In this document: in pieces, positions 361-64,000 of the stretch
How the letters are laid out: each line of letters opens with the position of its first letter
Position numbering within the stretch: position 1 is the first letter of the stretch
NCBI GenBank assembly: GCA_964016885.1
Contig: OZ024741.1
Coordinates: 93,310,001-93,374,000, forward strand
DNA length: 64,000 nt
From: Eledone cirrhosa
Taxonomy: Eukaryota
Direction: 5' to 3'
Made by a program: the position numbers and the translations under genes
Notes under the pieces: model-generated
Told to the model about the DNA's origin: nothing
The model's database searches: none
Seen by the model: only the letters and a program-made list of their open reading frames with translations

Positions 361-1610
361 CCTCTGAAGAAGCTGTCAAGTTTCTTCTGCTTCGCGTAGG
401 GGGTCCAAGCTTTACTGCTGTAGAGCAGAGTGCTGAGCACACAGGCCTGGTAGATGCGCAGCTTGGTCTTCTCTGTGAGGCAGGGATTGTTCCAGACTCT
501 CTGACTCAGGTTGACCATAACTGCTGCAACCTTGGTGATCCTGCTGTTCACCTCTGTATCTAGTTGTGAGCGAGCCTGAGATGGTGGACCCGAGGTAGGT
601 AAACTTGTCGACAGCCTCCAGGGCGTGCCCGTCAATGGTGATGGTTGGAGGGTGATCTGTGCCCTGTGCCATGACATTTGTCTTCTTTAGACTGATGGTC
701 AGTCCGAACTCCTTGCAGGCGTGGGAGAGGCGACTGACAAGCAGCTGTAAGCCCTCTTCCAAGTGCAACGTCAGGGATACATCATCAGCAAAGAACATCT
801 CACGAATAAGAACCTAGGTCACCTTGGTCTTGGCATAGAGACGGGCAATGTTGAAGAGCCTGTCATTAGCTCTGGTGTGGATGTACACACCCTCACTGCA
901 GTCCTTGAAGGCGTACTGGAGGAGCATCGAGAAGAAGATGCTGAAAAGTGTCGCCGCAAGGACACAACCCTGCTTCACGCCACTGCTAACAGGGAAGGCC
1001 TCGAATATAGTGCCGTTGAGGCAAACTGTGCTGCGCATGTTCTCGTAGAACAAGATGACACAGCAAGCAGGTGTGGGGGTCAGCCAATCTTCTGAAGAAG
1101 CCTTGAAGAGTTCGCTCCTGCTGACCAGGTCAAACACCTTCGCCAAGTCGATGAAGGCGAGGTAGAGAGGCATCTGTTGCTCCTGACATTTTCTCTTGAA
1201 GTTGGCACAGTGAGAACACCATATCCACCATTGATCGTTCAGCACAAAAGCTGCTCTGAGACTCAGGGTAGGCGAGGGTCTGCAGACGAGCCAGGACAAC
1301 TCGGGCAAATACCTTTCCCATGATGCTAAGAAGGGAGATCCCTTGATAGCTGTTGCAGTCATTTCTATCTCCCTTGTTCCTGTACAAGGTGATGATGATA
1401 GCGTCATGCATGTCCTGGGGTATGTGTCCCCTCCCAACATCGACAGAGGAGTGCATGCAGGGGCTGGAGCAGCGCAGCTTTCCCGCACTTCAGAACTTCC
1501 GCAGGTATGCCGTCGCTCCCTGGGGTCTTCCCATTGGTGAGGCAGTCAATGGCTTTACCAAGCTCCTCTCATGTGGACTGCATGTCGAGCTTGTAGTGAT
1601 CTACATTCCG
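361..1610 (-). mobile_element. RTE-clade LINE RT fragment (frameshifted)
   Basis: ORFs 1130-1456, 814-1488, 412-798, 324-677: KGDRNDCNSYQGISLLS, AFIDLAKVFDLV, GVKQGCVLA, FADD, FTYLGS, KLRIYQACVLSTLLY. Confidence 0.9.
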
Positions 1611-1967
1611 CGGGCTCACATACATTCTCTGTGCGTGATTTGGCTCAGCTCAGCCAATCAGCGCCAGTAGAAGAGGATGTATCCCTACGCGTTCTGAGGG
1701 AGAAATAGCCCGCAAAGATTTGAAGACGCTATCACTTCCAGCTAGGCCGTGCTAAGGTAAACACCACTTGTTCTTTTGCTCCGCCAGCACAAACAATATG
1801 TAACGACACAACAATTTTACCACAGAATTGGCTAAACGCCTCAGCCAGTCGACCGTATTTTCTCTTGTAATCTTAATTGATTTGTTTCATTTCTCTTGGC
1901 ATGCCAGCCTAATTCACTTCTTAACCTTGGTTAATAAAGAATGTAAAAACAAGCTAAAGTCGTCAAT

Positions 1968-3443
1968 ATTCCTATCATATCTTTCTACCAAACCTGGTTC
2001 CTCGTGGCAACATTACTACAACTTCTAAATACATCTTCAGCCAAATTGGAGACCCTCGACGATTAAGTATGAAAACGCAGCCTATTTGAATTCGCCATTC
2101 GTTTTAATGGCTATGTGGAGTGGCTTAACATTTGGACTGTTCGAATCGGGTAGCTAGACTCACTTAGCGTAAGTCCACAAAATTCATAATATTCCATTTG
2201 TTGAAGCACGCGGCCTGCACAATATTTCTGTCGTAACTCACGCATACAGACGAACACAAAAATACAACACAAAAAAAAATTAATTTAAAAAAAAAGGATT
2301 TCTCTGGATGTGGAATTTTGCTTTCGGCGTTCTGTTGAAATTACAAATGGAGACTCGGAAATTTTGTTTACCCGCGTACAGCTTGTCTTCTTCAATCCCA
2401 GCCATCTGATTGGCTGCATCGTGCCACATGACGGCTTCTTCATCACGGACACATTTTTCGATCGGCCATCATGGAAAATAATTTTTTTTCTTTAGAATAT
2501 TTTCAAATTTTCTTTATAATATTTTTGGAAAAAAAATTAACAGTATTTCAAAAACTTTACGCCACGAGGAAATTTCAAAACGGCTACCACCAAGTACCAC
2601 CCATCAGCTAACTATTAACCAACACCAGGGAACGGCTTGTAACTTTACCGACGCAACCACCATACCTTCTGTCTCGTTACCACAAGGACTCGAGAAATTA
2701 AGACATTAGTTTTCTCACCATTATGGCGTCAGACGTGGCTGCCATGTTGGTGACGCTAGGTTTTTCAATGCTCGACTTCGACTCTACAGAAGATTCATTG
2801 TGACTTTGCTTTAACAACAACTCTACTAGCTCCCTAGTAAGAGCGTTCCCAAAGAAAAAAGAAGCAAACTTTTTGTTAAAAGAAAAGAAACAATTCTTTC
2901 TTCCTTTTTTTTTCAGGCATTTATTTTGGACATTTATTTTTTTTAAACTGTATTATATGAAAATTCATTTCTCTCTATCATTGTATATTGACCGCACGCA
3001 CACATTTTCTTTGCTGTATTACATGGAACTGCAACCCACCTACAGATTTAACTTGTTTTTTTTTCTTTTCAAAGCAACCAGCCATTTTTTCCTGGCTCCC
3101 TAGCACATTCGGCAATACATCTGGGAGGCCAACATTTTCTCGCCTACCCATCATCTTCTTGCCAGCACTGGTAAACTACCATAATAGCTTCGTCCACAGC
3201 TACTGGTACAATACTTACCATTAACATTTAATGCAAGAACAGCAACTTCGCCCATGTCAGACTTTATCTGTTTTCTGGTAGACCTTTGGTGGTCACGTAT
3301 AAACTGCAAAACAGCTAGTCATTTGACAGCGACTCAACACAGTCGTCAAAAAAGTCGTTGTCGATATTCCTATCATATCTTTCTACCAAACCTGGTTCCT
3401 CGTGGCAACATTACTACAACTTCTAAATACATCTTCAGCCAAA
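1968..3443. repeat. ~77-bp exact direct repeat (1968-2044 and 3367-3443)
   Basis: TTCCTATCATATCTTTCTACCAAACC...ACATCTTCAGCCAAA occurs twice, about 1.4 kb apart. Confidence 0.85.
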
Positions 3444-3629
3444 AGCTCTTCCACCACCGGCAGGTCGGGGATGGCAACAAGGGCGGAGTCGGTGATGGTG
3501 CTCTGTGTTGCGTATAACCATCTTTTGTTGGTGGTTGTGTGTTTGTGTTGGTGATTGGTGGTTTTGCGGTGTCTCTTTTTTTGTTTTTTTGATTTCTGAG
3601 GCTCTCCTTCATTGTGTGTCAGCGGGTAG

Positions 3630-4082
3630 CACACACATCTAGGATCACATACAACACATAAGCAGGTAATACACACATCTAGGACCACATACTACACACA
3701 AAATCAGATAATACACACATCTAGGACCACATACAACACATAGGCAGGTAATACACACATCTAGGACCACATACAACACATAAGCAGGTAATACATACAT
3801 CTAGAACCACAAACAACACATAATCAGGTAATACAAACATCTAGGACCACATACAACACATAATCAGGTAATACATACATACATCTAGGACCACATACAA
3901 CACATAAGGAGGTAATACACATAAGCAGGTAATACATACAGCTGGGACCACATGCAATACATAAGCAGGTAGTACATACATCTAGAACTACATACAACAC
4001 ACAGGCAGGTAATACATACATCTAGGACCACATACAACACACAGGCAGGTAATACATACATCTAGGACCACATACAACACAC
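3630..4082. repeat. Minisatellite, ~40-bp unit, ~11 copies
   Basis: Unit ACACATCTAGGACCACATACAACACATAAGCAGGTAATAC repeated with variants. Confidence 0.95.
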
Positions 4083-4085
4083 ATT

Positions 4086-5346
4086 GTATCATGTACTACG
4101 GACGACGCAAGAGCAATAGTCGGCCAACATAAGGGTTTCGTCACTCTTCTGAAGAGAGAAAATCTATCTGTTCGTAGTGTCATTCATTGACAACACTTGG
4201 CTGCGGAGAAACTCAGCGAGCCGCTGAGCAAGTCCTTGCAGGTGGCCATTGATGTCATCAATTTTATCAAACACCATTCCCTCAATGAACAAATTTTTCG
4301 TCAAGTTCCCCCTTCATACTGAAGTGAGGTGGCTTTCAAAGGGCAAGTGCCTTACTTCTTTGAACTGTTCGACTCTATCATTGGTTTCTTCGAGGACGCA
4401 ACACAGAACTGTACAAGAAAACCCTCGATGTGAGGCAAGACTGCGCTTACATGGCCAACATCTTTTGGCTTTGCAGGGGAAGATCACCTTGCTTAAAGCA
4501 AGGAGTGCTGTGAAAACATTCCTGGCCAAATTGAATGTCATCGAAAGGAATCTTTGTTGACGGGAATTCTATAATTTTGCTAGTGTCGCCAATGTTCAAA
4601 ACATTGTAAACAATGACCGACTCCAAATTTATACCGCTCACCTCTGTGCGCTACAAGACAACATGACAGAACAGTTTGTTGACCTTTTGCCGATGGACAT
4701 CCCAATGTGGATAGCAGATCCCTTCATAGCTACCCTCGACGATTTGGACGTTAAATTTCAGGAAGAATTCATTGAACTTCAAACAGATGACATGATCAAA
4801 ATTAGATTTCCCAAAATAGATGAACCCCTGTTTTGGATGCAAGAGGAAATTCAGCATCGATTTCCACTCCTCCATGCAGAGGCTAAGAAATTTGCTCTGC
4901 CTTTTCCAAGCTCATGCTTAGTCGAGATGAGGTTTGGTGCTGTTTCCAGACTGCACAGTAAGTATCACAACCGCTACAATGTAATTACACGAGATCTCTG
5001 GCTACATCTTACGAAAATTCAGCCTCACGTCAAAGAGTTAGCTAGGCTCCATGAAGCTCAAAGGTTCCATTGAAATGAGGTCAAAGTTAAAGTAATTTGA
5101 TTTATCCGAAAACTTGGATATGCTATTGTTACAAAGCAAGCTAACAATTTTTTTATTTGTAGTTGCGGTCTGACTGGACTGGAAACCATCTACTTCAATT
5201 CACTTACTCATTTGTTGTATATATTTTACCATTTACTAATAAATATACCCTCTTACGTGGTCATGAAAACCCTCTTCCATGGCGGGCGTTTCGTGATTTC
5301 AAGAAACAAAAGGGGGCGTTTGGCATAAATGGGTTGAGAACCTGTG
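4086..5346 (+). mobile_element. hAT (Buster/Charlie, ZBED8-like) 3' portion with right TIR
   Basis: [11 protein letters not shown] (4249-4560), C-terminal dimerisation region LPFPSSCLVEMRFGAV (4663-5073); ends GTTGAGAACCTGTG, a degenerate CAGTGGTTCTCAAC-type TIR. Confidence 0.85.
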
Positions 5347-5454
5347 ATCTACACAATGGTATATTATTTAACAGAAAACTTTTGTTTTTTGTATGTAAAA
5401 AAGACTAAAACTTACCAGCGAGACTGGCACACGTTTTCCTTTATATATACTTAT

Positions 5455-5484
5455 ATAAAGTGACATCCTGTCTTAAAGGGTTAA
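5455..5484. mobile_element. Orphan piggyBac-like terminus
   Basis: ...CCTGTCTTAAAGGG followed by TTAA; no partner end seen. Confidence 0.4.
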
Positions 5485-5609
5485 AAAAAGAATGGGTGCG
5501 CATGTATTGGCGGTTAACCCTATGTAGGCCCTACCAGACGTGGGTGTGTCGACCTTACATTTATAGACAATATTACTGGATAGGCATTTCCCGGGTAGAA
5601 GGCAGTCTT

Positions 5610-5765
5610 TCCGTTTGGAGTCGTTGAGTAAGGTATTTTAGCAGTGTTTCTATTAAATATTTTATTATATTTTATTATATTTATGTGCTGAGAGGAAATA
5701 CTTCTTAATTAAAGAGAGAAAGATTTTTGCTGTTGGTTTGGCCACCTGCATATTATATGGTGGGT
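5610..5765 (-). pseudogene. Naiad-type PLE fragment (3' half of host split by the Vingi-like LINE)
   Basis: Reverse strand reads NPPYNMQVAKPTAKIFLSLIKKYF..HKYNKI..FNRNTAKIPYSTTPN, continuing RRIMWYNPPY from 11431-11510. Confidence 0.8.
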
Positions 5766-6811
5766 CTTCTTCTTTTCATATCTTCGAAGCATGTGGTTAT
5801 ATGACAGTTTCCCATTTCTTTACACAATCCTTTGCATTATTATTACATTCTGCAAGATCTTTTAAGCTGCACTGGTTGGGTAGTAGAGGGCAAACAAGGC
5901 TGTGCTGCATTGTATGGTCCTCCTCTCCGCATTCGCAGATGGTTGGGCCGGTCTTCTGATTGCCCCATTCCTGTTCTCAGGCGGTTGAGTGTCTTCCACT
6001 GGACCCATGGTGCTTCTGAGCCAGGAGAGAGGGCTTCAGAAGGGGGGATTCCTATGTCAATAGAAGGGGAGTCATTCTCTAGCTTTCTAGTCCATAGCTG
6101 TAGTCTGGTTGCTTCCTGAGATGTTGTTAGGGGCTGGACATGGCTGAGGAAGCTTCTCCTTGACTTTAGTCGTTGGGCCGGAGGTTCACGTCCGTGAAGG
6201 AGGTGGCGTTCGTCACTGATAGCCTTAGTGATCTCTACTCGGCTGGCAGCTTCCCGTCTCACATCTGCAGGGGCAATGCCACCGACGAGATGCAGGTTGT
6301 TTGGGTTAGTAGGCTTCAGGCAACCAGTGATCAAACGGCAGGTGTTGTTCAACACTGGGTCTAGTTTACTGGCATGGGTTGATCTCTCCCAAACCGGACA
6401 CGCGTACTCCACAGAGGAATAGCACAGGACCAAGGCAGTACATCTTAGTGTGTGTGCTGTGGCTCCCCATTTGGAGTTGGTTAGTTTCCGTAGGATGTTG
6501 TTCCGGGAGCTGACTTTCAATTTGGTGTTTTTGATGTGTTCCTTGAATGAGAGGGTGTGGTCCAGGGTTACGCCAAGGTAGACAGGATTGGTGCAGTTCT
6601 CAAGTGGTGTTCCTGACCATGTGATGTTAAGAGGTCAGTTGGCTTCCTGGTTCCTGAGATGGAACGAGCAGGCTTGAGTCTTCGCAGGGTTTCCCTGCAG
6701 TTGGTTGCTCTCGTAGTAGAGGAGTAGCTCATCCAGGGCTGAGTTGAGGTTTGCTTCTACTGCTTCGAACGTACTCTCTTGGGATGTAACACAGAGGTCG
6801 TCAGCGTAGAT

Positions 6812-9379
<2,568 letters not shown>

Positions 9380-11359
9380 GCTTAGATGAACCGCTCAGTG
9401 TTCTGGTCCATTGGCTGGTCATTGGTGTAGATGTTATATAGTAGTGGAGCCATCACACTACCTTGAGGTAAGCCGTTCCTTTGTCGTCGCCAACGACTTT
9501 GCTTGTTGTTCAGGGTAACATAGAAGCGCCTGTCTTTCAAGAGGGCTCCAATGAGGTCTGTGAATGCCAGGTCTTTTATCAGCTCCAAGATCTTTTTCAG
9601 GAGGAGGCGATGGTTCACAGTGTCATATGCGGCCGACAGATCAACAAAGACGGCTCCTGTTACCAGTCCTTTCTGAAACCCATCTTCAATGTGCTGAGTG
9701 AGATTCAGGAGTTGGCTTGTGGATTTGCCAGATCAGAATCCAGCTTGTTGGGGGATGATGGCTGGTTCAACAACTGGGGCCAACCTGCTGAGGATCAGGC
9801 GCTCAAGCAGCTTAAACGGGTGGCATAGCAAGGAGATTGGGTGGAAACTCTTTGCATGCGCTGGATCTTTACTCGGTTTGAGAAGAGCAATAATTCTGGT
9901 TTTTCTCCAGATCTTTGGGATGTTTCTTGTCAGCATGCAGATGTTCATCAGCTCAAGGACCCATTTCCGAGTCTGAGGTCCAAAGTGTTTGATCTCCTCT
10001 GTGAAAATATTATCTAGGCCGATAGCTTTACCAGTCTTAAGGGCATTGATGCTGATATTGAGCTCTTCAAGCGAGAACGGCTTAGTCAGTCCGGTGGTTT
10101 GGGAGTACTGAAGTCGGTCTACCTTTGGTCTTGGCTGTTTGGTGGTGGATTTCCTATTGAGCAACAGCTGATATGCAACTTGGTTGGCGGTGATGGTGTA
10201 CTGCTGTTGTGTTGCAGTTGACGGGTCGTTGCTGATTTTCCGGATTAGACTCCATGCCTTTTTACTGTTTTTCGTCATATCAGTTGTCTCCAACAGGTTT
10301 TGCCATTTCCATTGGCGGCATTCTGATAGGGAGGTCATGAGTCCCTCACCTACTTCGATGGTACTTTCAGCAAAGGGGTCAGATTCATAGAGCTGTTGGT
10401 ATTGCTCATATAGTTTGCTGCTTTGAGCATCAAGTCCAGGAATGTATTGAGTGCGGCAGCTTCTTGGAATGTTCTTCCGAGCTGCTTGGTGTACAAACTT
10501 GGTGAAGTTATCGTAGTTTTGGGGGTCCACTGGGAGGTGGGGAATCTTCCTTTCAAGATCTTCTTGGAAGCCAGTTGAATCTTCTTCGGAATGGAACTGT
10601 GGCTGGGGTGATTACAGCATTGACTGTAATGCCTATGGGGCGGTGTTGGGTTTTTGGCAGTGGCGCCAGTACCAGCTTCTTGCTCAGTCCGGTGATGTTA
10701 TGACTGACAAACACGATATCAGGATTGTAACCTGCTTTCCATCGTCTGCTGTTGAAGGACTTTGGTTGTTTGGCATCGTGGATCAAATCAAGCTGGTTGC
10801 TTTCAGCCCATGCTTCCACTGCATCTCCATCTGCATTGTTATTAGCATATCCCCATTGTGTGCTGTGGCTGTTGAAGTCTCCGATCACAATCTTTGGTTT
10901 TCCAGATGATGGTATTTCTGGCATCACGAGAGGTGTGAGAGGTGGTTTGTAGACTGAGGTGCTGGTAATTCCTCAGCTCAGCGGTTAGGACTTCGATGTT
11001 ATTATCATCGTTCTTTGGTGATGATTCGATGATTGTCCCATTTTTTGCTAGCATGATGCTTCCATATTTCTCATGTGGTCTTTCCATGAGGGTGGTCATT
11101 CCTTCCACATGAGGGCGTGGATGTTTAGGTCCACGGTGGGTTTCTTGTAGGCAGAGAATGTCACACTGATGCTCTCTGAAGAGTTTTGCAACAAGTTCTT
11201 CTTTAGTTGCAGATAGTCTTTCAATATTTAGAGATATGATGGTCAATGCTGGCCTTAGAGGCGGGCGTTGGCCTCTCTTCATGCTCCGGACTGGTAGGCT
11301 ACCGTCATTCGTTGAGCTTCTGGACATTGCTTGTCTTTCGGCTCGGCTTTGAAGTGTTT

Positions 11360-11430
11360 GGTAGAATTTGAAAGTAAACGTGGGTATTACTTGACAGAGA
11401 TCGCGACGTGAACGCTTCTACCTTCATCCC
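11360..11430 (-). ncRNA. HDV/CPEB3-like self-cleaving ribozyme at the LINE 5' end
   Basis: GGGATG-AA-GGTAGAA(P2)-GCG(P3)-TTCACGT(L3)-CGC-GATCTCT(P1')-GTC-AAGTAA..TTACTT(P4)-TCAAA-TTCTACC(P2'). Confidence 0.82.
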
Positions 11431-11509
11431 ATATGGTGGGTTATACCACATAATACGTCGGGATCTATTTTTCCTAGATTTATGCTCATACTTAGTATAT
11501 TCTACCTCA

Positions 11510-12410
11510 TTAACAAATTCATTATTGAACCCTTCAATGCTGTTGTTTTTTTGTTGGTACGTGGCATGCACCGCTCCACTCTTGAATGAACATTCCACAT
11601 AGGAATTGGGAATAACGGTGTTGACTTTCTCCCATTGTTACCCTTTCCTCTCATAACACCAATGTACGTTAATTCAAAATAGGACAGAAACTCTTCAGGA
11701 ATGTCTTCATCTTTGGATAGCTCTTCAAAGCCTGTAACAACATCATTACACGGGAGGAAAGCCTAGGCTGAAAAACATTGTATCTTTAAACTAAATCTGC
11801 CTTCATTGTGGTATCGATTTTTGAAACTAAGGTTCACAATCTTTCTATAGAGGGCCTGACAAAAGTGGAAAAAACAACCAGTGTGTTCAGTTTGAGGAAA
11901 AACACTCTTTAGTCCATTTATCGAAGCCTTTTGAAAATCGCTCATTATCTTGATTATGTTGAACAGGTTTTCTTAGGTTGTTTCAATTTTGTTAGGAAGA
12001 AATGCAAAAAGACGTGGAAAACTAGGTTTTTTAACCTGTACATGAATTGTAAAAAGCTGATAATACACATCAGGTGACACTTTGAACGTTCCATCCATAG
12101 CCCAGTTTCTATATTTTCTTAAATCTTGAATACCATCATTCATACTAAATAACAATATTCGATTTTCATCATCAGGTCCAGAATCATACTGGAGGAGTCT
12201 TTCTCCAGAATCAAGATTTTGAAATTCGGGTGGAATTATGAATCCTGTCCTTTCAGAGGGAATTAGTGGGGTGCATGATGTTTACTTTTTCCAGTGTCGA
12301 ACATTTCTACTTATAGGTTTGATTCTTGGACCGGGCGATGCGTTATGTCCTTGAGCAACATTGTTTCCTCGGTCGGATTTGACGAAAGTCGATCAACAAT
12401 TTTTTTTTTT
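11510..12410 (-). mobile_element. MULE transposase, catalytic region (degraded)
   Basis: WAMDGTFKVSPDVYYQLFTIH, LPNK, MSDFQKASING, GCFFHFCQALYRKI, WNVH..PRT..NSIEGFN. Confidence 0.9.
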
Positions 12411-12519
12411 ATAGTTAAAATCTGGAAGATAATATTAGAGAAAAGCAATGAAGAATGACATGCTGAATGAAAACAAAAGCAATATATACAAACACACACA
12501 GACCACAACTAAATATTGA

Positions 12520-14070
12520 ATGATACGCGATAGGGCCCCGGCGGTCAGAATGGAGAAGGTATTTCCTCGGAGGACAGCAAGGGAGATGCGCTGGAAAAGC
12601 CACTCCACCTCGCGGGGCTCACACCTACGGCTGGCCAGCTCAGCGCCTATGGTGGTGAGTAGGGAGCTAGCTCTAAGGCTAAGGACACCAGAAGTCTCCA
12701 CTGCCAGGGGTACAACCACAAACCTGTCGGAGAGCGACCGGTATTTGAGGAGTTTAGCTCCCTCAGCCCGACATGCAGCAGAACCCGGGTTAATCGCAGA
12801 CTGCACCAGGTTGCAACTGCAGAAAGTGTCGGTGCAAGTGGCATCCCAGACAAGGGGTTTACCACCGCAGAACGGGAAGATGGTCATGCCATCTGGCCTT
12901 TTACCGTGCCCTCGGTCCAGCCCCATCGGCTCGAGTTGGGAAGGGAAGCCTGCAGCGTCCAAGCCATGCTTTCTGACCTCGTTGAGGGCAGCATGGCATG
13001 GAAGGCGACGGGAAAGCGGGTGGAGGCTGAAATGGTCCACGATGGATTCGCAGATCCGGAGGCCGAGCCTCAAGGAAACGCCAATGCGCAGGTTATTATT
13101 GTCTATTATTGTCTAGCGTGCCAGTGGGGAAGGAGGGCGGGGCATGGAGCCAGGCACCACTGTGTGGTTTGGAGGCCGCAAGAAAACAGGCAAGGTGGTG
13201 CTGGTCGAGATGGCACGTGAGCCTGTCTGAGGCGGCTGCACTGGATGGCATCCCAAGTGCTCTGAGGGGACTTGACGTCAACAGGGGGAGAAGGAGGAGG
13301 GACGTCTACTGGGCTGAGTCCCATCCGGTCCCACGTCTCACAGGCGGCCTCACGTTCTCTGGACACAGGGTTCTATTGTGTTTTGGAGAACCCTGCTAAC
13401 GAGGACGCGGCACGAGGTTACCGATGAAAGATACGCCGGCAAAGCTAGTGAGGTCATGGACCGGAGGCCAAGGCCGCCATACCTGACAGGTAAAGTGGCC
13501 TGTTGCCATCCAATGTTGTCAAACTTGACGTTGCATATCTCCTCATGCTCTTCGGCATGGCGAAGCAGTTCCTCAACAGAAAGAGGGCTGGGTGGCCGTC
13601 GATCAAGCACGCTTGGAATGGGCACTTGCCCAAAGGACGAAACATTAGTCTACAAAGGCTGCTGTTGACCAGCGGCCCCGGTCAGCGCCAGAGCTGGGGA
13701 GGCCAAAGGGCAAGTGGGGCGAAATAAAAGAGTCGCTCCCAGTAGATGGCTCGATTGGAGTCCAGGGCACTCTCAATCGAGGAGGCGAGGGCATCAGCTA
13801 CCAGCACCCGGGTCGCTCTAGGGATCCTGAGTGGGATCTTCTGGAGCCGCCTGAGCCGAGCGATGTTGACCAGCCAGGCTTGGACGTCAGGCAAGCTCAC
13901 TGTCTTATCTGGTGGTGGGGCAGACAAGGGGAAGAGGCAGTTCCTGCATCTCCACGCTTCCGTCTGTTAGGGTGCTGCAGGTGTCGGCTTGAGGGATGGG
14001 GCACCGCGCGGCATCGGGGATGAGTGGCTGGCGTGTGTGGGCGGAAGGGAAAGTGCTGGTAAGAAGGCTT
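12520..14070 (-). mobile_element. CRE-like (restriction-like endonuclease) non-LTR retrotransposon, internally deleted
   Basis: QQATLPVRYGGLGLR, SGAWLHAPP, HAALNE..EPMGL..KRPDGMT..VWDATC..VPLAVETSG..QRISLAVLRGN; the N-terminal RIPRATR region joins directly to the thumb region. Confidence 0.85.
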
Positions 14071-15470: not shown

Positions 15471-15485
15471 TGGAATTATCTTCAT

Positions 15486-16290: not shown

Positions 16291-16399
16291 TGGTTTAAAG
16301 TCTGAAGAGTCCTCAACCGAGGGAGCCAATAATAAATGTGAAGACTAAAATCTGAACAGGGATCGATAAGGATTATATATATATATAAACCCGTAGAGC

Positions 16400-16710: not shown

Positions 16711-16719
16711 TATATATAT

Positions 16720-17400: not shown

Positions 17401-17579
17401 CACCTTTCTATTTTATGTTGTATAAATATGATAATACAGTACGAATGAAGAGAAGTATATTATAAATAGAAAGAAAAAAAATATATATATAATAATACAA
17501 TGCTTACAGAACGAAAGCACAGACATATAATATAAAGGAAGCGGGTGGACAACTGAGCCACCACCAGAAGAAAAGACAG

Positions 17580-51293: not shown

Positions 51294-51297
51294 ATAT

Positions 51298-51623: not shown

Positions 51624-51648
51624 CATATATATATACACACACACACAC

Positions 51649-52644: not shown

Positions 52645-53049
52645 CGTAAAATACTCCAAAATCTGTTGAGTGCTTTTATATCAGTTATAAAATATTTACT
52701 TGTTGTAACCCAACAATTTTAAATAAAATTTTTGCATATATATATATATATATAATAGGAACCAGTAAGACCCCGACGGCTGAAATCATGCCGTTTCGAC
52801 GGCTAATTCTGGACGTTATGGTCCACCTGGTTCCTTACCACATTTCCTTCGTTATATATATATATAAAATAAACAACATAAGACAATTATTTCATTTACC
52901 AGTGGTTTCTTAAAAGCAAACAAATTTTGCTTTCAATCATCAGAATGAAAAAATCCTGGTGTATTTATTGGCATTAGATTTTAAAAACAAAAATATAATC
53001 TATATGAAAGTGAGGCTGGAAAAGGAAGAAGGAAAGGAAAAATAAACAC

Positions 53050-53668
53050 ACATGCAAACTCACACATATATATATATACATACACACACACATATGTGTA
53101 TATATATACATACACATACATACATACACACACATATACATGCATATATATACATAAACATATATATACATACACACATACATATATACATACACATACA
53201 TACATACATACACACAATCATACGTATATACACACATACATACACATATATACACGCATACATACGCACACACACAAATAAATATAAGAAAAAATATAAT
53301 AATAAAAATGATAAAGATTATTATAGTGTTGACAGCGATACAGGCAACAAATAAATGAACAAACACACGTGGTAAGCAATACACACAAATGCACGTACGC
53401 ATACATACGTAAAAATAAATACATACACTCTCACACATACATACGCATACGTTATACACACACACATATATATATATATACATATATATTATATATATAT
53501 ATATATATACATACATACATACATATCCATACATACATACATCTACATACATATCAAACACATACATACAAATACAAACACACACATATGTATGTGTAAA
53601 ACTCATTCTTAGATATATTCATATGAACCTTGTTTAACTCTAAAATATATATATATACACATATATAC

Positions 53669-53700
<32 letters not shown>

Positions 53701-54300
53701 CTACACACACATATACATACACATACGTATGTATACATACATACATACACACACACATAATTATGTATATATATATATAAGAAAGAACATACATATTATA
53801 TATATTAAAAAAACTAAATATTGTATAAATAAAAATAATTAGAAAAGGGTATAAATGTTTATAGCTAATTTAGATCACTCAATAAGTTCCTGGAGCAAAT
53901 GATCAATGAAAATAAGCATTAAATCACTGTATGTAATTATGCATATACATACACACACAAACACAACCACAAAAATACACACACACATACATAACCGTAT
54001 ATAATTATACATACGGCAGAGCTCAAGCCGTTTCTGAGGCTATTATATATATACACACAAAACCATTATATAAAAATACATATACACGCCCATACACACA
54101 CATTAAATCTATATATACACACATATATATATATATACACACGCACAAATACAACAGAAGTATATAATATACAATTATATATACATATACATACAGATAA
54201 ATATAAACATACATACATACACACACATATACATATACATACACATATATATATACACATATATATATATATATACACACATATACGCAACACACACACA
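53050..54300. repeat. Compound (TA)/(CA)/(TACA) microsatellite field
   Basis: Directly visible; further tracts at 55210-55342 and 58600-59175. Confidence 0.95.
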
Positions 54301-54419
54301 AAAATAAATATCTAAAAATAAAAAAATTGGGTATGTGAAGGGTAAGGCAGAAAGTAGGGGAAAAAAGGAAAATAATTGACATAGGAAAAGGTTTAAATAT
54401 AAGGGGAGAAAGAGAATAC

Positions 54420-54970
54420 GAGAGTACAGAACGTGGATTCAGCAGGTAAAAAAACCGTAGTGGAAGTAAAGAGCAGAAGTGGCTTTCAGTTTTGTAAAAT
54501 CCTATATTTTTCCGTGGTACACAAAGAACAATTCTTTGTGCCCCTTTGGTACTCCCTCGAATGGTCTAAAATAGACCAATCGATAGAGTACGAGATGTTT
54601 TTATCCTTGAATTCCCACACCTTACTTGCGAGGGCCGTTGCTGTTCTTTTATCGGAGTGCTTAAAAGAAGCGACATGTGCATAAAACCTGGTTTTAAACC
54701 TGTCCTGGGTCATGCCAACATATCGCTCACTCCTGGCTGGCTGGTTGTTGATTAAAGATGTCACTCTGGCCTCATAAACAACGGATTTGGTGTTACATTT
54801 GCCCTGTAATGGGCATTCATCCGGCTTCCTGCAACTGCATCCTGGATTTGTTCTCGTATGATTTGAATTAGTGATCTTAGACTTCATTGATGGGCAACAA
54901 GAGTAACTGATCTTAACTACATTTCTATTAAATATCTTATAATATCTATGATTAGGAGGAAAATGTTTTC
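54420..54970 (-). mobile_element. Naiad-type GIY-YIG endonuclease fragment
   Basis: KISYSCCPS, CSCRKPDECPLQGKC, VVYEARV, RYVGMT, FKTRF, CSLCTTEK. Confidence 0.9.
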
Positions 54971-55266
54971 CTTCCTACATTAGTTTTGACAGTTAGAGAG
55001 AAGGGGGGGGGGGGGCAATTAATTTTCTTTTTCCTATTATTGTGGTTAGTTTTAGGGGGGGGGGAGTAGGTAAATAATTAATTTGTTCTGTAAATCCGCT
55101 GTTATTAAGGGCTTTATTAAAAATGTCTAGAGACAAAGATAAGGTAGAATTCCTACGGCTAATGTTGGGAATAAGATTTTTTTAAATTATAGGGGGATGG
55201 CAAGACTCTGTGTGTATATATCTAAGATTTTTGTTATATATGTGTATATATGTATGTATATATGTG

Positions 55267-55303
<37 letters not shown>

Positions 55304-55342
55304 ATGTATGTATATATATATGCATATATGTATATGTATATA

Positions 55343-58300
55343 TCATCATCATTTTACGTCCGCTTTTCCCTGCTTGCAAGGGTGGGACGGGTCTTATTCA
55401 GCACAGCATCTCTCCACTCGTCACGGTCCTTCGTCATCTCCACCGTGAGATTCAATGATCTGAGGTCTGTTCTCACCACCTCCGCCCATGTTTTTCGTGG
55501 TCTACCTCTACCACGTCTTCCTTCAACTGGCATTTCCTGGCACTTCTTCACCCATCGGTCATCCTCCATGCGCATCACATGTCCATACCACCTCAGTCTC
55601 CTCTCCCGTACACTACATTCTATCCCTCTCAGACACAGTTTCTCTCTCAACACATTTATGCTGGGTCGTTCACGCACATTTACACTGCACATCCAACGGA
55701 TCATGCTTGCCTCATTTCTCTGCAGTTGCTACCCATGTCTCACTACCATGCAGCATCGCGCTCCTCACACAGGCATCATACAACCGGCCTTTCGTACGCA
55801 GGGAGAAACCCTTCGTCAATAGAGGAAGCAGCTCCCTAAACTTCTTCCAACGCGTCCTTATTCTAGATACTATGGCCTCGGAACACCCTCCTCCCATGCT
55901 AATCTGATCTCCTAGGTACCGGAAGCTATCCACCACTTCTATAGCGCCCTCCTGCATTTGAAAAATGTGTCTATCAATGCGACTTCTACTGTCTAATTTC
56001 CCTGTACATCTACTGCATACATATTTCTCCCTACCTGTTAGTTTGCCTGCTATCCCGCTACATCTCTTGTGTACCCAGGATCTGCATTGTGTGCATTTTA
56101 TAGAATTTATGCCAGTTCCTTTTCTGCATATCGAACATGGCCATTTCCCTGACGGAATCAGGGTTTTGTCCTCTTTTCTACTCATCAACACTTTTGTCTT
56201 AGCTAGATTCACACTCAGTCCTCTTGCTTCCAACTGCTGTTTCCATAGCCAGAATTTATTCTCTAGCTCCTCTACTGATTCTGCTATAAGAACCAGATTG
56301 TCAGCATAGAGAAGTTCCCATGGACAGCCAGTCTTAAACTCCTCTGTTATGGCTTGGAGGAAGGACTATAATGAACAAGAGCGGGCTGATGACCGAACCC
56401 TGATGTACTCCTACTTGTATCTGGAATTCCTCACTAAACTCCATTCCTACCCTGACTTTACTGAGACTACCTCTGTACAAAGTTTGCACTGTCCTCACAA
56501 GCTATTCCTCAACACCTAGCTTCCTTAGGGACCACCAGATGACAGATCGGGGTACCCTATCAAAGGCCTTCTCTAGGTCAACAAAGGCTAAGTATAGTGG
56601 CTTATTCTTCTCTAAGAACCTCTCTTGCAATTGTCTCACCAAGAAGAGGGCATCTGTTGTACTCTTCCCAGGCACAAAACCAAACTGCACCTCATCTAGT
56701 TTGACCCTTTCTCTAATTATTTGTGCTAAAATCATTTCTGCCACTTTCATAACCTTTTCTATCAGTTTTATACCCCTATAATTGCTCCTCTCCAGAGCAT
56801 CCCCTTTACCTTTGTAGCAATTTATGAGAATACTGCTGCACCAGTCTTTGGGTATGACACCACCATATATAGCCTGATTGATGATGCGTGCAACCAGTTT
56901 AGTGCCTACGTCCCCTGATGCCTTCAGCATCTCAGCAACTATTCCCGATGGTCTGGCAGCCTTACCATTTTTCATTTCCCTAATCGCCTCTTGGACCCTA
57001 TATTCGTCAATCTCAATAGCTGGTCCCTCTGTCGGATCTACCAAGGGTAATTTCTCTCTCTCCCATTTGTTCTCCACATTCATCGGTCTCTCATAATGAC
57101 ATTTCCAGGCCTCCTTTTTCTGATCATTCGTGACACTAAGTACACCGGCATCATCCCGGACACATTTATCTCCAACAACATCCTGATTTGTATTGACACA
57201 CTGCCTTGCAATGTGGAACACCGCACGCCTCTGATCTTCCCGTCGCAGAACATTGGCAAACCTCCTACTCTCTGCCTCCCTGCATGCTAAGTACACCTGA
57301 CGTCTAGCTTCTCTCTTAGTGGCTGTATATTCTTCCCTACTACCACCCTTTTTCCAAGCCTTCCATGCTAGTCTTTTGTCTCTAATAGCCTTATCTACTG
57401 TGCTGTTCCACCACCAGGTCACTCTCTGTCTGGTTGGAGCTCTGCTCCAGCTACAAGTTTCATCAGTAGCCTGCAGCAAGTTGTCACATAAGAAATTCCA
57501 GTTATCTATGTCATACGTCTCTAAATCGTCTTCTTTTTCGTCATACACATCTTGAAGGGCTTTCCTAAATTTGTATTTTAGTGAAAGGTCTTTTAGCTTC
57601 CAGACCTTTCTTCTCCACACCTTCCTATATGTCTCATTCCATCTCTTGCTTACTGAGATATCACTAACAACTAACCTATGCTGTGGGGTACATTCTTCCT
57701 CAGGGTATGCCTTGGTATTAGACACTATCTGCCTGTCCCGCTGCCTAACTAGTAAGAAGTCAATCTGGCTTATGTGCTCACTAGATTTGTAGGTTATTAG
57801 GTGATTGGCAGGTTTCTGGAAGTTTGTGTTGCAAATAATCAATGTACCTACATCACAAAATTCAAGAAGTCTCACTCCTTCTTCATTTCTTGAACCGTAA
57901 CCGTGCCCACCATGTACCCCAGTGTAACCATACTGGAGCTGTCCAACATGACCATTGAAGTCTCCTGCTAGCATAACGATGTCTCCGTCCTCTGTCATTG
58001 CGGTTGTTTGCAAAAGTTGCTCATAAAAGCAGTCTTTCTCATCTTTGCCTAGGCCTGCTTGGGGAGCATAGGCCGAGATGATTGTCAGTAGTCTCCTACC
58101 TACAACTAATCTAAGCTTAATTATTCAATTACTAACTCGAACTACCTCTATTGTCTTATTGATCCATTTCTCAGCCAGGAAAATGCCTACTCCCTCTAAC
58201 CCATCATCCTTACCTACCCAGAATAGCTTATAGCTAAGACGTTTGCCTACGACTAGTCTCGCAGAGGCACCTCTCCATCTCACCTCTTGCACGCACCACA

Positions 58301-58520
58301 CATCCACCTGCCTTCTCTCCAGCATCTCCGCTATTTCAGCAGATCTACTTCTGAGAGTGCCAACATTAAGTGTTGCGACGTCTTCATATTTTGTTGTTGT
58401 TCCTATTTGTTGCTGTGCTGATAAGCGTTTTGGCATTGATACACTGGTTGGATGCCCTTCCTAACACCAGCGCCACTTTACAGCATGGACTGGGTGCTTT
58501 TATTTGTGCCACCAACACTA
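55343..58520 (-). mobile_element. Near full-length RTE LINE (APE-RT with PHD-like insert), (ATG)n tail
   Basis: ATLNVGTL, VQEVRW, YAPQ, GDFNGHVG, NYRGIKL, FVDLEKAFDRV, LYADN, CSIC..CTQC..H..C..CSRC, RLRWYGHV; several stops and frameshifts. Confidence 0.95.
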
Positions 58521-59859
58521 GAGAGGATGTCTTACTAGACTCAAGGGCCCTCTCTACCCCTCCATTTTACAGCATGGTCATAAAAAAAAAATTAAAAAAA
58601 TTATTGACACGACGCACACACACACTAACACTCATGCATACAAACCACAACCACACGCACGCCACTCACATACCAACACTCATTCATGCATACAAACACA
58701 CACACCACTCACAAACACACATATATATATATATATATATATATTACCGGCAGTACTGATACAAATACAAAATCAAAATCAATATCATGTCAACTGTTGT
58801 CCTTTCCCAGTCCAGTTCAGCTTGTATATAATAATAATTGTTTGCTTTACGCTGGTAATGGCGGTGGTGGATGGTCAGTGATGGTGGTGGCAGTTGTTGG
58901 TGCTGTAGTTGTTATTGTAGTTGCTGCTGCTGCTGTTGTTGTTGTTGCTGTCGCTGTTCTTCTTCTTCTTCTTCATTTCACTGCTGCTGTAGACAATGGT
59001 GTTGATGCTATTGCAGTCGCATATATATAAATACATACATACACACACATTCAACACAGACAATGGTGTTGTTGCAGTTGTTTGTGCTGCTGTTGTTGTT
59101 GTGTTGAAATCTGGTCTCATCCACTGAGATATACATATACACACACATATATATATGTATATACACATACATACATCAAAAGAGTCAGCAGTATGTCAAC
59201 AAGGAACAGGTCAGCCACGTTAGATAGAGTAATGAGTACTGTGGTGATGGTGGGGAGCGAGTGTAGACGTTATTGTTATTGTGGTGGCGGGGCTCAGTGA
59301 GATGTACAAGTTCATAGATCACTTGTCTCTTTTCCTCTCTCTTCAAAATTTTGAATTTATGGCCTTTTGCAATGGCGGACAAGTATATATAATATATAAG
59401 AAGCAAAGAAAATTTCAATGATACGAAAGATTTCCTGGTGGAAGTTCAGGTGTACTCAGGGTTGGTATCCAGTTTCGGGGTGAAAATCCAACGAATTTTG
59501 AGAAGTCCACGTGAGTTCATCCATCTTAAGGTACAACGCTAGCAGGTCGCCCCCGAGATAGTGCGATGAGCCCCGCTACATCGTCTATCTTTAAAAGTAA
59601 TGACTTTATGGATAAACACAAAAATTAAAACTTTATCTGACTTACCTGCTAGATTTGTTACAAAGAATATCCAATAATGACCTAGATGTTGACTTCTAAC
59701 AATTTTAGCACATTTCCGAATAGGTGAATTAATTTAAAATGCAGGTGTAATCAGTACACGGTTTTAGTCTGTCTCTATATTTCATGCAAATATTTTCATT
59801 GAAAAAAATGTATAAAACTCTTTCACCAGTCAAAATAATATTGGCAATGTACTCTTACA

Positions 59860-62479
59860 CAATGTACTGAGTAGATTTATATAACAGAATGTGCCCAATA
59901 TATAAGTTCATTAACAGGTGTGACACAGGTGAATGCAGGTGTTTTTGTATTTAATGTGTTCCAATATATTTTTTTAATATTTTTTTCAATATTGTCAGAC
60001 AATATTTCTATCATGATATTGGCCAAAACAGCCTTACATAATGGCACTTTGCAAAAGGAACACATGAATGTGGTTTGAATTCCATAACCTTTAACAGTTT
60101 TTTCTCTTTTGCAAAGAGCACATTCGGCAAACCTTCTTCCTCCCATTAATTTTCTCCACTTTGTGAAAATCAATATTTTCTTTGTTCACCTCAGATAATT
60201 TCGACTTTCTCCAAGCTTTGTGTTTACGAGAAGTATATCCTCCACGTAGTTAGATCCGACGTCCACACGAAATTTCATGTGGCAGTAGTCCATTGGTGGT
60301 GGCGGATCCTTGTGGCTTTTAGTGAATGCTATAAAAGAATTCACAATGGTTAAATTCACTAAAAACCACAAGATATATCTCCACCATTTCTTTATGCACA
60401 ATATTGGTCTGATTTGTCAACCCTGCCCATATATTTATTATAGGAGAGGTTGACTAAAGGTTTACCTTCAGCCCCCAACTCCTGGTTCTTGGTTAGACGA
60501 TAGGAACAAAATTTGCCGCTTGTCTTTATACAATGTGGTTAACAAGTTCCATTTTTGCAATTGGACAATGTCCCCGCTCTTTTTACATTTTGTGATTTTC
60601 ATTTCTTGGGCTAGCCCTTTGCGATTTCCCATTATTGTACCGCAGGTGTACGTATTTACGAGGGCAAGATCCTCTGCTAGACGCACTGAAAAAAAAAATG
60701 ATCAAGGCGATATCCAATTTTATCGGCCTAAATGCCGCTTACTTCAATGTATGAGGCTATTCCAACAAATTTACATTCCCCTTTTTTTAGCCGTTAAAAG
60801 AAATATAGATTTATTTGTTTTTTTTTTGCGATTTATTTGCCACTGGGGCATAGATTTCTTTATTTGCCCCTTTTTTGTTTGTTTGTTTTTTGTTTTTGTT
60901 GCGATTTATTAGCCTTTTGGGGTCACACACACCCCCCGTAGAAAGTGTGCGACCTTTCTGCCAGGGAGCACAGAGAGAGGGGGTGCTCCCTTCTTCTCTT
61001 ACCTGTACAAGCCGATATAGAGAGATGGCCCACTTACACGGGCCATTATTGCTACTTTCACCCATCTTTCATGGAATTGGCTGGGACTGGGTGCCTTTTT
61101 CTCCACCTTGATCCTTCTTTCGAAGTGGTATCGGAAGAAGAGGACCATTTGTTGGCCGGCGACATATCCCCACAGGTAAGAGAAGGGAGCACCCCCCTCT
61201 CTCTGTGCTCCCTGGCAGAAAGGTCGCACACTTTTTAGCCAAAAGGCTAATAAATCGCAAAAAAAAAAAACAATAAATAAATCTATATTTCTTTTAACGG
61301 CTAAAAAAAGGGGGAATGTAAATTTGTTGGAATAGCCTCATACATTGAAGTAAGCAGCAACTACAGCAAGTAAGCGGCATTTAGGCCGCTAAAATTGGAT
61401 ATCGCCATGATCAAAATATATGTCTGTGTTGAGAGTGAAAGGGTTCAGTCAGAGACCACACAGCATCGTACCCCAAGCCATATTTTCTCTCTCCATCAAA
61501 GTTTATACAGTAGCCTGTGTCCGATTCACAGAGTTCCCACACTTTGATGCCCCATTAAGTGGGTTTAGCTGGCATGTATTGTCTAAAATGAATACTACTC
61601 TTATACCCAATCATAGCTTCATCAACACTAAGATTTTTCCCAGGTATATATACACTGTTTTAAATTTTTCCGAGAGCATTTTAATTACTGGTCGAACTTT
61701 ATACAGAGGGTCATAATTGAAATCATTTCTACCAGGTGCAAATATTGGTTTAATTTCAAATACCTTGTTTTTGGCATAAGACTTGATATATAAGGGTCGC
61801 TAAACCTTATATCAGTGCTCCAGTAATTCCACAGTCTTGGAAATTATTTAAAAAACGCTTGCATCTCCAGGTCGCCGTAACTGATCGGGTTTTCTTCGAT
61901 ATGAAATCTGCTGTTGGGCATATTGATTCTATTTTGCCACAACTTCGAAGAAAGTTTGTGGCAAAAACAAAAAGAAATAATCCAGTGCTTTAGCATCGGA
62001 AGGTAATATATGCTGTGGACCAGTATTTTCAACAAAATCGGGAACATGTATTGGTGTGGTATTTTTCGACCATGTTGCTGAAATATCTTCAATGGCGCCC
62101 TGGAGATCTGGTTCGCTTTCACTTTCAAAACAATCATCGTCGGACGAAATTTCAGAAATATAAACATCAGATTCATTTGATGATATATCACTAATATTAT
62201 CTTTTGTTTCTTGTTCATTCTGAATGTCGTCGTGTGTAAAACCTTCAAAGTCGGTATCGCTACTTTCAGAAGCCATGTTGATACAAAAAAAATTTGTTGC
62301 ACTTTCAAAGTTAAAAAAACATGTTGCTTTAACTTGTTTCACTATATTAAGTGTTAATTTTCGCGGTAAAGGCCTAATCTCGCAGTAGTCTCGAATTGAC
62401 GAGATTTTGATGATGGTTTGTTTATTTTTAGAACGATATTTTAGTGTAGGTGTTTTGGAGCGGTTTGAACACTAAAGGG
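59860..62479 (-). mobile_element. piggyBac (PGBD4-like) transposon, degraded
   Basis: TTAA|CCCTTTAG 5' end at 62479; acidic N-terminus, DPLYKVRP, SVDEAMI, KWGIKVW, YFD, CGTI, YNKYMGRVD, KKWWRYILWFL, C-terminal CALC..CSFCKVPLC. 3' TIR not found. Confidence 0.92.
60706..61406. mobile_element. Foldback MITE (Merlin-like), ~250-290-bp TIRs, 8-bp TSD
   Basis: GGCGATATCCAATTTTA...TAAAATTGGATATCGCC; TSD ATGATCAA at 60698-60705 and 61407-61414. Confidence 0.88.
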
Positions 62480-62499
62480 TTAAGAGAGAATTTCGGCGT

Positions 62500-62860
62500 C
62501 ATTGGTTTGTAAGGGTCAGTGTACTTCAATGTCTAAGCTAGTTATGATAGTCTTACCTAATCTATCTATGTGATTAAGTGTGTTAGTAGGTGTTTTTTTG
62601 TAATTTTTGCTTAATTCGTTGGAGATGAACTGCCTATATCTATTTGTCTATCTTGTATAGGTTTTTAGTTTTGTCAGAGACTACATACAAGTGTTTGTCA
62701 TTCCTTATTTCAGTTATGAGAGTATTCAAAGAGTTCAAGAATTTGTTGGTGCATTTGTATTTTTTTGTATTTTTTAAAATCTGTTTCTGATCATGTTTAG
62801 CAAATTGTTTTCGAAGGAGTCTAGTAGGGTGTTGTGTGGTGGGTTCTTATAAGTTTTAAA
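62500..62860 (-). pseudogene. Naiad-type 5' ORF fragment
   Basis: FKTYKNPPHNTLLDSFEN, VSDKTKNLYKI. Confidence 0.8.
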
Positions 62861-62864
62861 TGTT

Positions 62865-63940
62865 GTCTGTGCACTCTATGACAGCGTCTTAACCTGGAAA
62901 TTCAAGCTTGGGTGGCGTGCTTGGGTGGCGTTTTAAAGGATAACTAGTGGGATATCATTCCAAGCTCTTGCCAAGCACGTTTTCAAATCATCAATGACGT
63001 CTGTGTCACGTCGATATTTCTGAGTCTATGTTAATAACAAGCTCCAAACACAGTAATCCATGACATTTAAGTTTGGACTTTTTGAGGGCCAATCTTCAGG
63101 AGTCGATTACTGAAGAAATTGAATTGTAGCCCTTGCTGCCATGACACTTTTTATATCTCGGAACATCTGTGGACACATCTCATAATAAACTTGTTGGTTT
63201 ACTGTCTTTTTCTTCTTGCCTTGAGGATTATGGTAATATCCTTCAATAAATTGTAGCTCCGTTTTACCACACCATGAAACAGCAGCATTACAAAGGACAG
63301 ATGGCTGCAAATTCTCATATTTTACGGGCAGGTCTTCCTCAGGTATGTCAGTTTTCACATTCACTTCTCGGTAAATGCAATCATTTTGTCTATTCAAAGG
63401 AGGTCGCAATGAAAACTTTGCTTCGTCCGAAAACCATACTCTTCTCCAAGCATACTCTGGTTCAAAGCGATCAATCGCACATTTTCTGATGTCGATCAGT
63501 GAGGACGTTGTATTTTATTCGACGATAGCATTTCAGTTCACTTTCTTTGAGAATTTCAAACACAGATGTTTTTGAAATATTGAGATGTCTAGCGATTTCT
63601 CGTTGAATTAAATGACATCTCTCCGTTGAACTGCGTCGCACAGGTGAAACAGCTAAATCTTTTACTGTGTCACGTGTTTCGTCCGAAATTCGTTTCTTTG
63701 GACCCGTCCCTTGTCGGTGAGAACTAGCTGTTTCATGTCCCCGTTTCAAAAATTGCAACATTATCAAACTTATGCCTTGTGATCGTTGAAAAAAAATTCA
63801 GTAACATGGTTAAACATTTTGTCAGTCCCCAAGTTAGATTTTCAGTTTTGAACAGAACAATCACCTGCCTTTGAAAGTCTGAAAGCTGTTTCCTCCCGTT
63901 TACAGACTTACATGTATAAACCCCTGCCATCATGTTTTGT
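62865..63940 (-). mobile_element. Tc1/mariner (maT/DD37D-like) transposase, degraded
   Basis: HTH QREIARHLNISKTSVFEIL, FSDEAKF, LNRQND, WPSKSPNLNVMDYCVW. Confidence 0.85.
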
Positions 63941-64000
63941 AATGTCCCATTGTGTGCTCTTCTGGCAAATAAAGAAATCTATCTATCTATCAACATTGTG

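Follow-up and report, generated by a model that had tools for sequence, protein, structure and literature searches.

Transposon array behind Hus1

The DNA described here is a stretch of 64,000 nucleotides in the 3.0-Gb genome of Eledone cirrhosa (C2:93,310,001-93,374,000; contig OZ024741.1 of assembly GCA_964016885.1), referred to below as the window. Its whole length (1-64000) is the distal part of a transposon array of about 305 kb (C2 ~93.069-93.374 Mb), in which most elements lie on the minus strand, the plus strand, continuing from the gene Hus1, being the presumed transcribed strand. The window was analyzed together with 400 kb upstream, 200 kb downstream and three other genomic regions, and positions outside it are given relative to its first base. 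The upstream edge of the array is the last coding exon of Hus1 (plus strand) at -241.1 kb, all Hus1 coding exons being mapped between -328 and -241 kb. The next gene found downstream is LDHD (D-lactate dehydrogenase), on the minus strand at +133 to +94 kb. With Hus1 (+) before it and LDHD (-) after it, the array thus occupies the interval that separates two converging genes, in antisense orientation to Hus1. The last Hus1 intron (C2 92.995-93.069 Mb) is 74 kb long and nearly all repeats, with RTE-type long interspersed nuclear elements (LINEs) at 10:1 antisense, the other introns being 0.3-5 kb. Several kb just behind Hus1 are mostly unique DNA (68% unique), and AATAAA motifs are located about 1 kb behind its stop codon.

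A manual list of the window, in which interrupted elements were joined through tblastn and DNA matches, gave 31 minus-strand and 4 plus-strand insertions (p 3.5e-6), or 30:4 if two Penelope-like pieces are taken as one insertion; about 8 more repeats have no assignable orientation. The first-pass annotation, made from the letters of the window, had placed 31 of 37 orientable elements on the minus strand and 20 consecutive ones between ~5600 and ~37700; the bias was confirmed and the run reproduced, the uninterrupted minus-strand run being composed of 20 oriented pieces from 5466 to 37674. The automated tblastn annotation gave 28 minus and 3 plus calls, and 20 and 1 after self-hits were dropped. 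Transposon-type Pfam domains were detected in 28 of the 280 open reading frames (ORFs) scanned, 27 on the minus strand and one on the plus strand, representing 11 minus-strand elements and one plus-strand element. The strand of elements labelled by motif rests on open frames and same-frame matches to relatives.

The window was chosen in a whole-genome scan of ~47,000 windows, and its bias alone is not significant after correction. The one-strand bias is nevertheless real and beyond chance, because the 241 kb upstream, which were not selected, are also biased (48:17 minus:plus, p 1.5e-4), while the control blocks pool to 46:38. The controls were twelve 50-kb blocks (600 kb) chosen by hand at arbitrary places, with no random generator; 11 of the 12 gave calls, and one of them 7:1.

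When the annotation was extended along the scaffold, the minus:plus ratio was found to be 9:11 upstream of Hus1 (-400 to -330 kb), 12:8 over the Hus1 introns (-330 to -241 kb), 76:20 in the array (-241 to +64 kb; 67:17 without self-hits), 13:12 from +64 to +184 kb and 9:8 from +184 to +264 kb. The array therefore runs about 305 kb from behind Hus1 and fades before LDHD. Within it, the minus:plus ratio is 22:2 for DNA transposons and Helitrons, 29:6 for LINEs and 5:0 for Gypsy. Around a CR1-type LINE (-212 to -198 kb) the array includes a tandem duplication of about 7 kb, 98-99.8% identical in its core. A Pfam search of ORFs in unique sequence of the array (272 selected ORFs and earlier window scans) gave no convincing host-gene domain.

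Second array behind Mis12

A second array, with transposons on the plus strand, is located at C2 46.76-47.23 Mb, where it was first seen as a run of plus-strand transposases (46.8-47.2 Mb) in genome match lists. Its plus:minus ratio is 50:3 over 200 kb and 66:5 overall, or 39:3 after dropping the seed matches and collapsing a tandem run (p 6e-9); six samples further down gave 13:2, the lower limit being known from samples only. If such arrays extend from a gene by read-through, a minus-strand gene is expected at the upper edge of this array, and Mis12 was found there as predicted, with six coding exons on the minus strand running from 47.271 to 47.234 Mb and ending at that edge. The antisense:sense ratio around Mis12 is 6:2 in its introns and 15:14 in the 140 kb upstream. 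In each array the start is about 10 kb or less away from the last coding exon of a gene with the required orientation.

Repeats shared between the Hus1 array and the Mis12 array, compared without use of element labels, were inverted in 125 and direct in 52 of 177 pairs, versus 89 and 75 of 164 pairs with controls. Segmental duplication between the two arrays was rejected because the matches are not collinear, and the Mis12 array is therefore not a duplicate of the Hus1 array.

The two arrays pooled (142:25 antisense:sense) differ from the introns of Hus1, Mis12, LDHD and Piwi (27:17, Fisher p 0.001) and from the DNA upstream of Hus1 and Mis12 (24:25, p 1e-6). The first-pass annotation had named location in a coding-gene intron with the bias of other introns as a ground for rejecting its proposal; the bias of the pooled arrays exceeds that of these four genes' introns.

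A third minus-biased region was noted at C3 290.29-290.77 Mb (36:15 in 20 samples), with repeated Tx1 plus piggyBac units and possibly duplicated.

Rare transposons and viral remnants

The array makes up 0.01% of the genome, and library-free genome searches placed in it 2 of 12 genome-wide MULE matches (p ~7e-7; post hoc, one of them inside the selected window) and 3 of the 125 piggyBac matches listed (116 of 1116 candidates scored; p ~3e-7; post hoc). The tblastn annotation, using a library of 114 proteins mostly derived from the Hus1-array locus, gave 24 DNA-transposon calls in the 305-kb array, compared with 2 over 161 kb of introns and 4 over the 600 kb of controls; without self-hits the numbers were 14 in the array versus 3 (p 5e-5).

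A remnant of a rhabdovirus-type glycoprotein (Pfam PF24833, E 1.7e-11) was detected on the minus strand 13 kb behind Hus1, beside a Penelope-like element. It is composed of three tandem partial pieces (segment L058:1984-3969) and was the sole site in the genome search. Protein search detected no full-length relatives, and none were found in PDB; its Atlas neighbours, a lead only, are glycoproteins of negative-strand RNA viruses, with scores under 0.9. In the Mis12 array are located 2 of the 8 genome matches to rhabdovirus nucleocapsid, one antisense and one sense, and a weak match to parvovirus NS1. Remnants of Mononegavirus polymerase were found at C3:130.160-130.165 Mb (most of the domain, with stops), C23:16.22 Mb, C3:37.50 Mb and C27:17.00 Mb. 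The proposal that a viral remnant is always a sign of a one-way array was rejected, since the flanks were 10:10 at C3 130.16 Mb and 3:1 at C23, the latter inside an apparent gene.

Elements of the window

Pfam domains were detected in the window for hAT, MULE, piggyBac, Helitron, Gypsy, LINE reverse transcriptase and endonuclease, GIY-YIG and transposase-type helix-turn-helix. For Chapaev, CRE/R4-like, RTE-X, Tx1, Tc1 and most Penelope pieces no Pfam support was obtained, and we presume these labels from sequence motifs. The element diversity described by the first-pass annotation was therefore supported for hAT, MULE, piggyBac, Helitron, LINE and long terminal repeat (LTR) elements, and lacks Pfam support for Chapaev, Tc1 and most Penelope labels. 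Its report of nesting up to three deep was borne out by two stacks, a hAT element inside an RTE-X inside a Penelope-like element, and a Gypsy inside a Chapaev-like inside a Penelope-like element. The elements listed below are on the minus strand except for the four plus-strand insertions.

The window begins with an RTE-type LINE fragment (327-1545; Pfam RVT_1), followed by the first plus-strand exception, a hAT-type transposase fragment (4119-5147) identified by open frames and a DNA match to a hAT of the Mis12 array, its label being presumptive. The first stack is hosted by a Penelope-like element (5466-16614, in pieces 5466-5765, 11420-11521 and 15463-16614; tblastn, and blastn to one copy in segment L029). 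Within it lies an RTE-X-type LINE (5846-11442; Pfam RVT_1 and Exo_endo_phos), at the 5' end of which a hepatitis delta virus-like ribozyme of the CPEB3 family (Rfam RF00622) was matched at 11360-11442. This LINE is split by a complete hAT (6812-9379; Pfam Dimer_Tnp_hAT and zf-C2H2_12), whose ends were read as 15-bp terminal inverted repeats flanked by an 8-bp target duplication (7/8 identical). One contig among three contig sets, from one sample and over 5400-19300, spans the junctions at 11339-11681, being neither independent of the assembly nor informative on expression. A MULE transposase (11505-15175; Pfam MULE) is split by a LINE into 11505-12508 and a probable N-terminal piece at 14924-15175, the latter recognized by motif. 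The CRE/R4-like LINE fragment at 12516-14182, with a second piece at 17487-17912, was matched to relatives by tblastn and blastn, and its label is presumptive. Two RTE-type LINE 3' fragments (16723-17322 and 18475-18960, together 16723-18960) were detected by tblastn and DNA matches.

The second stack (18956-26676) is formed by a Penelope-like element split in two (18956-19287 and 26045-26676; tblastn and DNA matches), a Chapaev-like DNA transposon (19302-26049, in pieces 19302-19438 and 25531-26049; blastn and tblastn, label presumptive) and the Gypsy that splits the latter (19439-25531; Pfam RVT_1, RT_RNaseH, rve and DUF7041), with two LTRs identical at 602 of 612 positions and broken gag-pol frames. 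Behind this stack are located a C-terminal fragment of hAT transposase (26980-27576; Pfam Dimer_Tnp_hAT), a second Gypsy fragment (27566-28299) and a Penelope-like element (28303-31485, in pieces 28303-29002 and 30850-31485) interrupted by a further Penelope-like piece (29004-29670) and a hAT-type piece (29756-30330), the last two elements being assigned by tblastn and DNA matches. A Helitron with Rep/helicase (33119-36718; Pfam PIF1 and Helitron_like_N) and a lone LTR of the same family as the Gypsy above (37033-37674; DNA match), split by an RTE 3' piece (37289-37416), complete the run of 20.

The run is ended by a plus-strand exception, a high-copy RTE 3' fragment (37842-38087; DNA match). 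A transposase-like minus-strand frame (39046-39342), of unassigned family and in unannotated DNA, was left outside the counts. A Tx1/L1-type ORF1 fragment (39195-40770; tblastn to relatives, label presumptive) is followed by a retroelement-like coding fragment of uncertain class on the plus strand (40880-41716; open frames and few relatives, no Pfam match), an RTE-type LINE fragment (41680-42112; DNA match), a second Helitron (42943-46753; Pfam PIF1 and Helitron_like_N) and the last plus-strand exception, a near-complete Penelope-like element (46968-49768; Pfam GIY-YIG and DNA match). The remaining elements are an RTE 3' fragment (51289-51635; DNA match), a Penelope-like element with microsatellite tracts (52853-55231; tblastn and DNA matches), a near full-length RTE-type LINE of an abundant family (55209-59516; Pfam Exo_endo_phos, RVT_1 and PHD), a piggyBac (59592-62479; Pfam DDE_Tnp_1_7 and zf-Tnp_2) split by a Tx1-type fragment (60878-61162, minus), a Penelope-like fragment (62480-62863; tblastn and DNA matches) and a Tc1/mariner-type transposase fragment (63110-63978; weak Pfam HTH_32, label presumptive).

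A tRNA scan of the window found none. Base skews track transposon orientation and were not used as evidence. Elsewhere in the genome, near-identical Helitron domains recur every ~100-150 kb on one strand at C20:3.5-5.2 Mb and C27:13.7-15.5 Mb and on C19 and C16, which suggests very large tandem segmental duplications.

Further neighboring genes

Beyond LDHD are located a minus-strand gene near +184 kb, which we take to be RPL8-like from its sequence, and a PIWI-clade gene with 19 coding exons in 36 kb on the plus strand (+202 to +238 kb; C2 93.512-93.548 Mb), 138 kb past the window. The genome has four Piwi-domain loci, and the host thus encodes PIWI proteins. The closest proteins to the exons of Hus1 and of this Piwi gene are from Octopus and Argonauta, in agreement with the cephalopod host that the first-pass annotation had thought probable. 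The array as an intron of the Piwi gene was ruled out, since LDHD and the RPL8-like gene lie between them and all 19 Piwi coding exons are within 36 kb. A conserved neighborhood of Piwi and cluster was also rejected, as 198 accessions separate Hus1 from Piwi in O. vulgaris and 151 do so in Argonauta, assuming that accession order follows gene order; the closeness of the two genes is probably coincidental, the result of a lineage-specific rearrangement.

Explanations of the one-way arrays

Based on the layout, limits, polarity and content of the Hus1 array and on the second locus, we can predict that the array is a uni-strand cluster for PIWI-interacting RNAs (piRNAs) fed by read-through from the Hus1 promoter, with a probability of about 0.5. 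In germ cells, transcription of Hus1 would continue beyond its poly(A) site and through the array, and this extension would be processed into piRNAs. Antisense insertions would give silencing piRNAs and be kept by selection, while sense insertions would give no piRNAs or shorten the transcript and be lost. New elements would keep landing inside old ones, which would explain the nesting. The absence of bias upstream of Hus1, the weak lean in its introns, the strong bias behind it and the even ratio beyond +64 kb fit a promoter at the gene. The plus-strand-transcribed transposon trap put forward by the first-pass annotation is accordingly the best reading of the locus, strengthened by the layout at Hus1 and Mis12, and its likeness to Drosophila flamenco is not strict. 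More tentatively, the main piRNA clusters of octopods may be extensions of 300-470 kb formed by read-through from single-copy housekeeping genes of the cell cycle (Hus1, Mis12), and these clusters would archive all transposon classes together with RNA-virus remnants.

Several observations weigh against the read-through cluster. The difference from introns is modest for the Hus1 array taken alone (p 0.04), and the local introns themselves lean antisense. The bias is uneven, the interval from -135 to -66 kb giving 11:8 minus:plus, and it is weak for Penelope-like calls in the array (19:12). On the plus strand of the array AATAAA is not depleted (338:338, plus versus minus), and no clear sign of transcription-linked mutation asymmetry was detected in LINE, Penelope-like and DNA-transposon copies, where private changes were too few, nor in known introns. 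None of the top 150 genome matches to Helitron falls inside the array, no bias is present around the polymerase remnant at C3 130.16 Mb, and one nucleocapsid remnant and one Gypsy integrase are sense-oriented in the Mis12 array. The origin of the protein library at the Hus1 locus inflates local element density relative to the controls, and the exon screen missed the short last exon of Hus1, its own control, so that short exons could escape it.

The last of these points bears on the intron of a plus-strand gene, the alternative that the first-pass annotation had raised. For a coding gene this is made less likely by the position of the array, which follows the final coding exon of Hus1 and precedes a convergent 3' end, and by a bias above that of local introns. 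The non-coding version is a possible though unlikely explanation: the array may lie in a long plus-strand non-coding transcript (a giant intron in the Hus1 3' untranslated region, an alternative last exon, a long non-coding RNA or read-through without piRNA output), from which sense insertions are purged for their poly(A) or splice signals, with few piRNAs made. That LINE and LTR elements within introns tend to lie antisense is established, in the part of the study covered (PMC3088655). The antisense lean of the local introns, including the RTE LINEs of the already 74-kb last Hus1 intron, indicates that purging operates in this genome, and purging also accounts for the like orientation of the two arrays toward their genes, Hus1 and Mis12. 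As purging only removes insertions, however, it does not predict that rare DNA transposases or viral remnants are enriched; the number of DNA-transposon calls in the array and a bias that in both arrays together exceeds that of introns also speak against it.

Next in rank, and likewise unlikely, is a uni-strand piRNA cluster with a promoter of its own, a stand-alone precursor gene that merely adjoins Hus1. All features of the array fit it equally, the mostly unique DNA behind Hus1 could hold such a promoter, and the AATAAA motifs near the Hus1 stop codon agree with it. It does not predict that both arrays, the second one by prior expectation, start so close behind the last coding exon of a correctly oriented gene, nor that the antisense lean is already present in the introns of Hus1 and Mis12. 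The stand-alone promoter and the read-through from Hus1 are both piRNA sources, and adding their likelihoods makes it probable that the array is one.

A cause not linked to transcription, such as a gene-poor transposon pile biased by chance, local duplication or insertion preference (e.g. replication direction), is very improbable and largely refuted, for against the selection of the window from a genome scan, the 7:1 control block, the 7-kb tandem duplication and the partly duplicated look of the C3 region stand the bias of unselected upstream DNA and of the Mis12 array after seed removal, some 19 element labels, insertion-site signatures, the lack of collinearity, and a bias that stops where the genes lie and is reversed between the two loci, in both cases antisense to the gene upstream.

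Comparison with known piRNA clusters

The published systems are compared here through the parts of each paper that were covered. A literature search of mostly open-access texts, supplements apart, gave no description of cephalopod cluster structure or of read-through clusters in molluscs; for O. bimaculoides, piRNA expression data are reported, without cluster architecture in the parts covered (PMC12479628). If the prediction holds, the arrays would be the first structurally defined candidates for cephalopod piRNA clusters findable in the literature searched, in a repeat-rich group, would carry the read-through ("downstream of gene") mode of cluster formation beyond mammals to molluscs, and would suggest virus-derived piRNAs in octopods. 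For both loci the coordinates are exact and the strand of transcription is predicted: plus at C2 93.07-93.38 Mb, minus at C2 46.76-47.23 Mb.

The antisense bias reported for intronic LINE and LTR elements (PMC3088655) resembles the arrays in its deficit of sense elements along the transcribed strand, and differs in that it does not entail enrichment of rare elements and that DNA transposons were left out of that study. The Hus1 array is also outside known coding introns: no plus-strand gene was found with exons on both sides of it, the Hus1 coding sequence being complete at -241 kb and the next gene found being LDHD on the minus strand.

Drosophila flamenco and flam-like loci share with the array a length of hundreds of kb, nested fragments and strong one-strand bias. 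In those loci, as defined by van Lopik et al., Gypsy elements alone drive the bias and follicle cells are the site of expression (PMC10643416), whereas here Gypsy accounts for 5 of 96 calls and every class is biased, including LINEs and DNA transposons. The term flamenco-like, used by the first-pass annotation, thus does not apply in its strict, LTR-rich and Gypsy-driven sense.

The 143-kb unidirectional cluster of Aedes aegypti with endogenous viral elements (PMC7161354) likewise combines transposons and non-retroviral virus remnants in a one-way array. In the mosquito an antisense transcript and phased piRNAs were shown and viral pieces are many; here there are one glycoprotein remnant, in its three tandem pieces, and three viral pieces in the Mis12 array, one of them sense.

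Among molluscs, clusters of the slug Arion vulgaris are for the most part uni-strand, their transposon fragments lying densely on the opposite strand (PMC11615739), unidirectional clusters are also described in a second slug, Deroceras laeve (PMC12506671), and clusters of the snail Lymnaea stagnalis show enrichment for DNA transposons, hAT among them (PMC6128900). The octopod arrays agree with these gastropod clusters in one-strand organization, opposite-strand transposons and enriched DNA transposons. The gastropod clusters were defined by small-RNA data, with no tie to upstream genes or viral remnants in the parts covered, in contrast to the present arrays, which were recognized from DNA. 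One mark of a uni-strand cluster, dense and diverse transposon fragments on one strand, is present in the Hus1 array (76:20 versus 46:38 in controls).

The closest layout is that of mammalian pre-pachytene clusters, which arise from read-through beyond the ends of genes and are densely filled with antisense transposon fragments (piC-DoG; PMC11615739); host genes have also been proposed as cluster anchors in mammals in a preprint on "promoter hijacking" (PMC13252550). In piC-DoG, as here, the dense antisense fragments follow on the last exon of the host gene, which stays intact, at a known scale of 50 to over 100 kb. The present loci differ in being from a cephalopod, in their length of 300-470 kb and in their many DNA transposons, Helitrons, Penelope-like elements and RNA-virus remnants, and are known from the genome sequence. 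At both Hus1 and Mis12 the array starts behind the last exon of the gene with its transposons antisense to that gene, and there is a credible chance that the two arrays, as candidates, are uni-strand piRNA clusters of this downstream-of-gene type.

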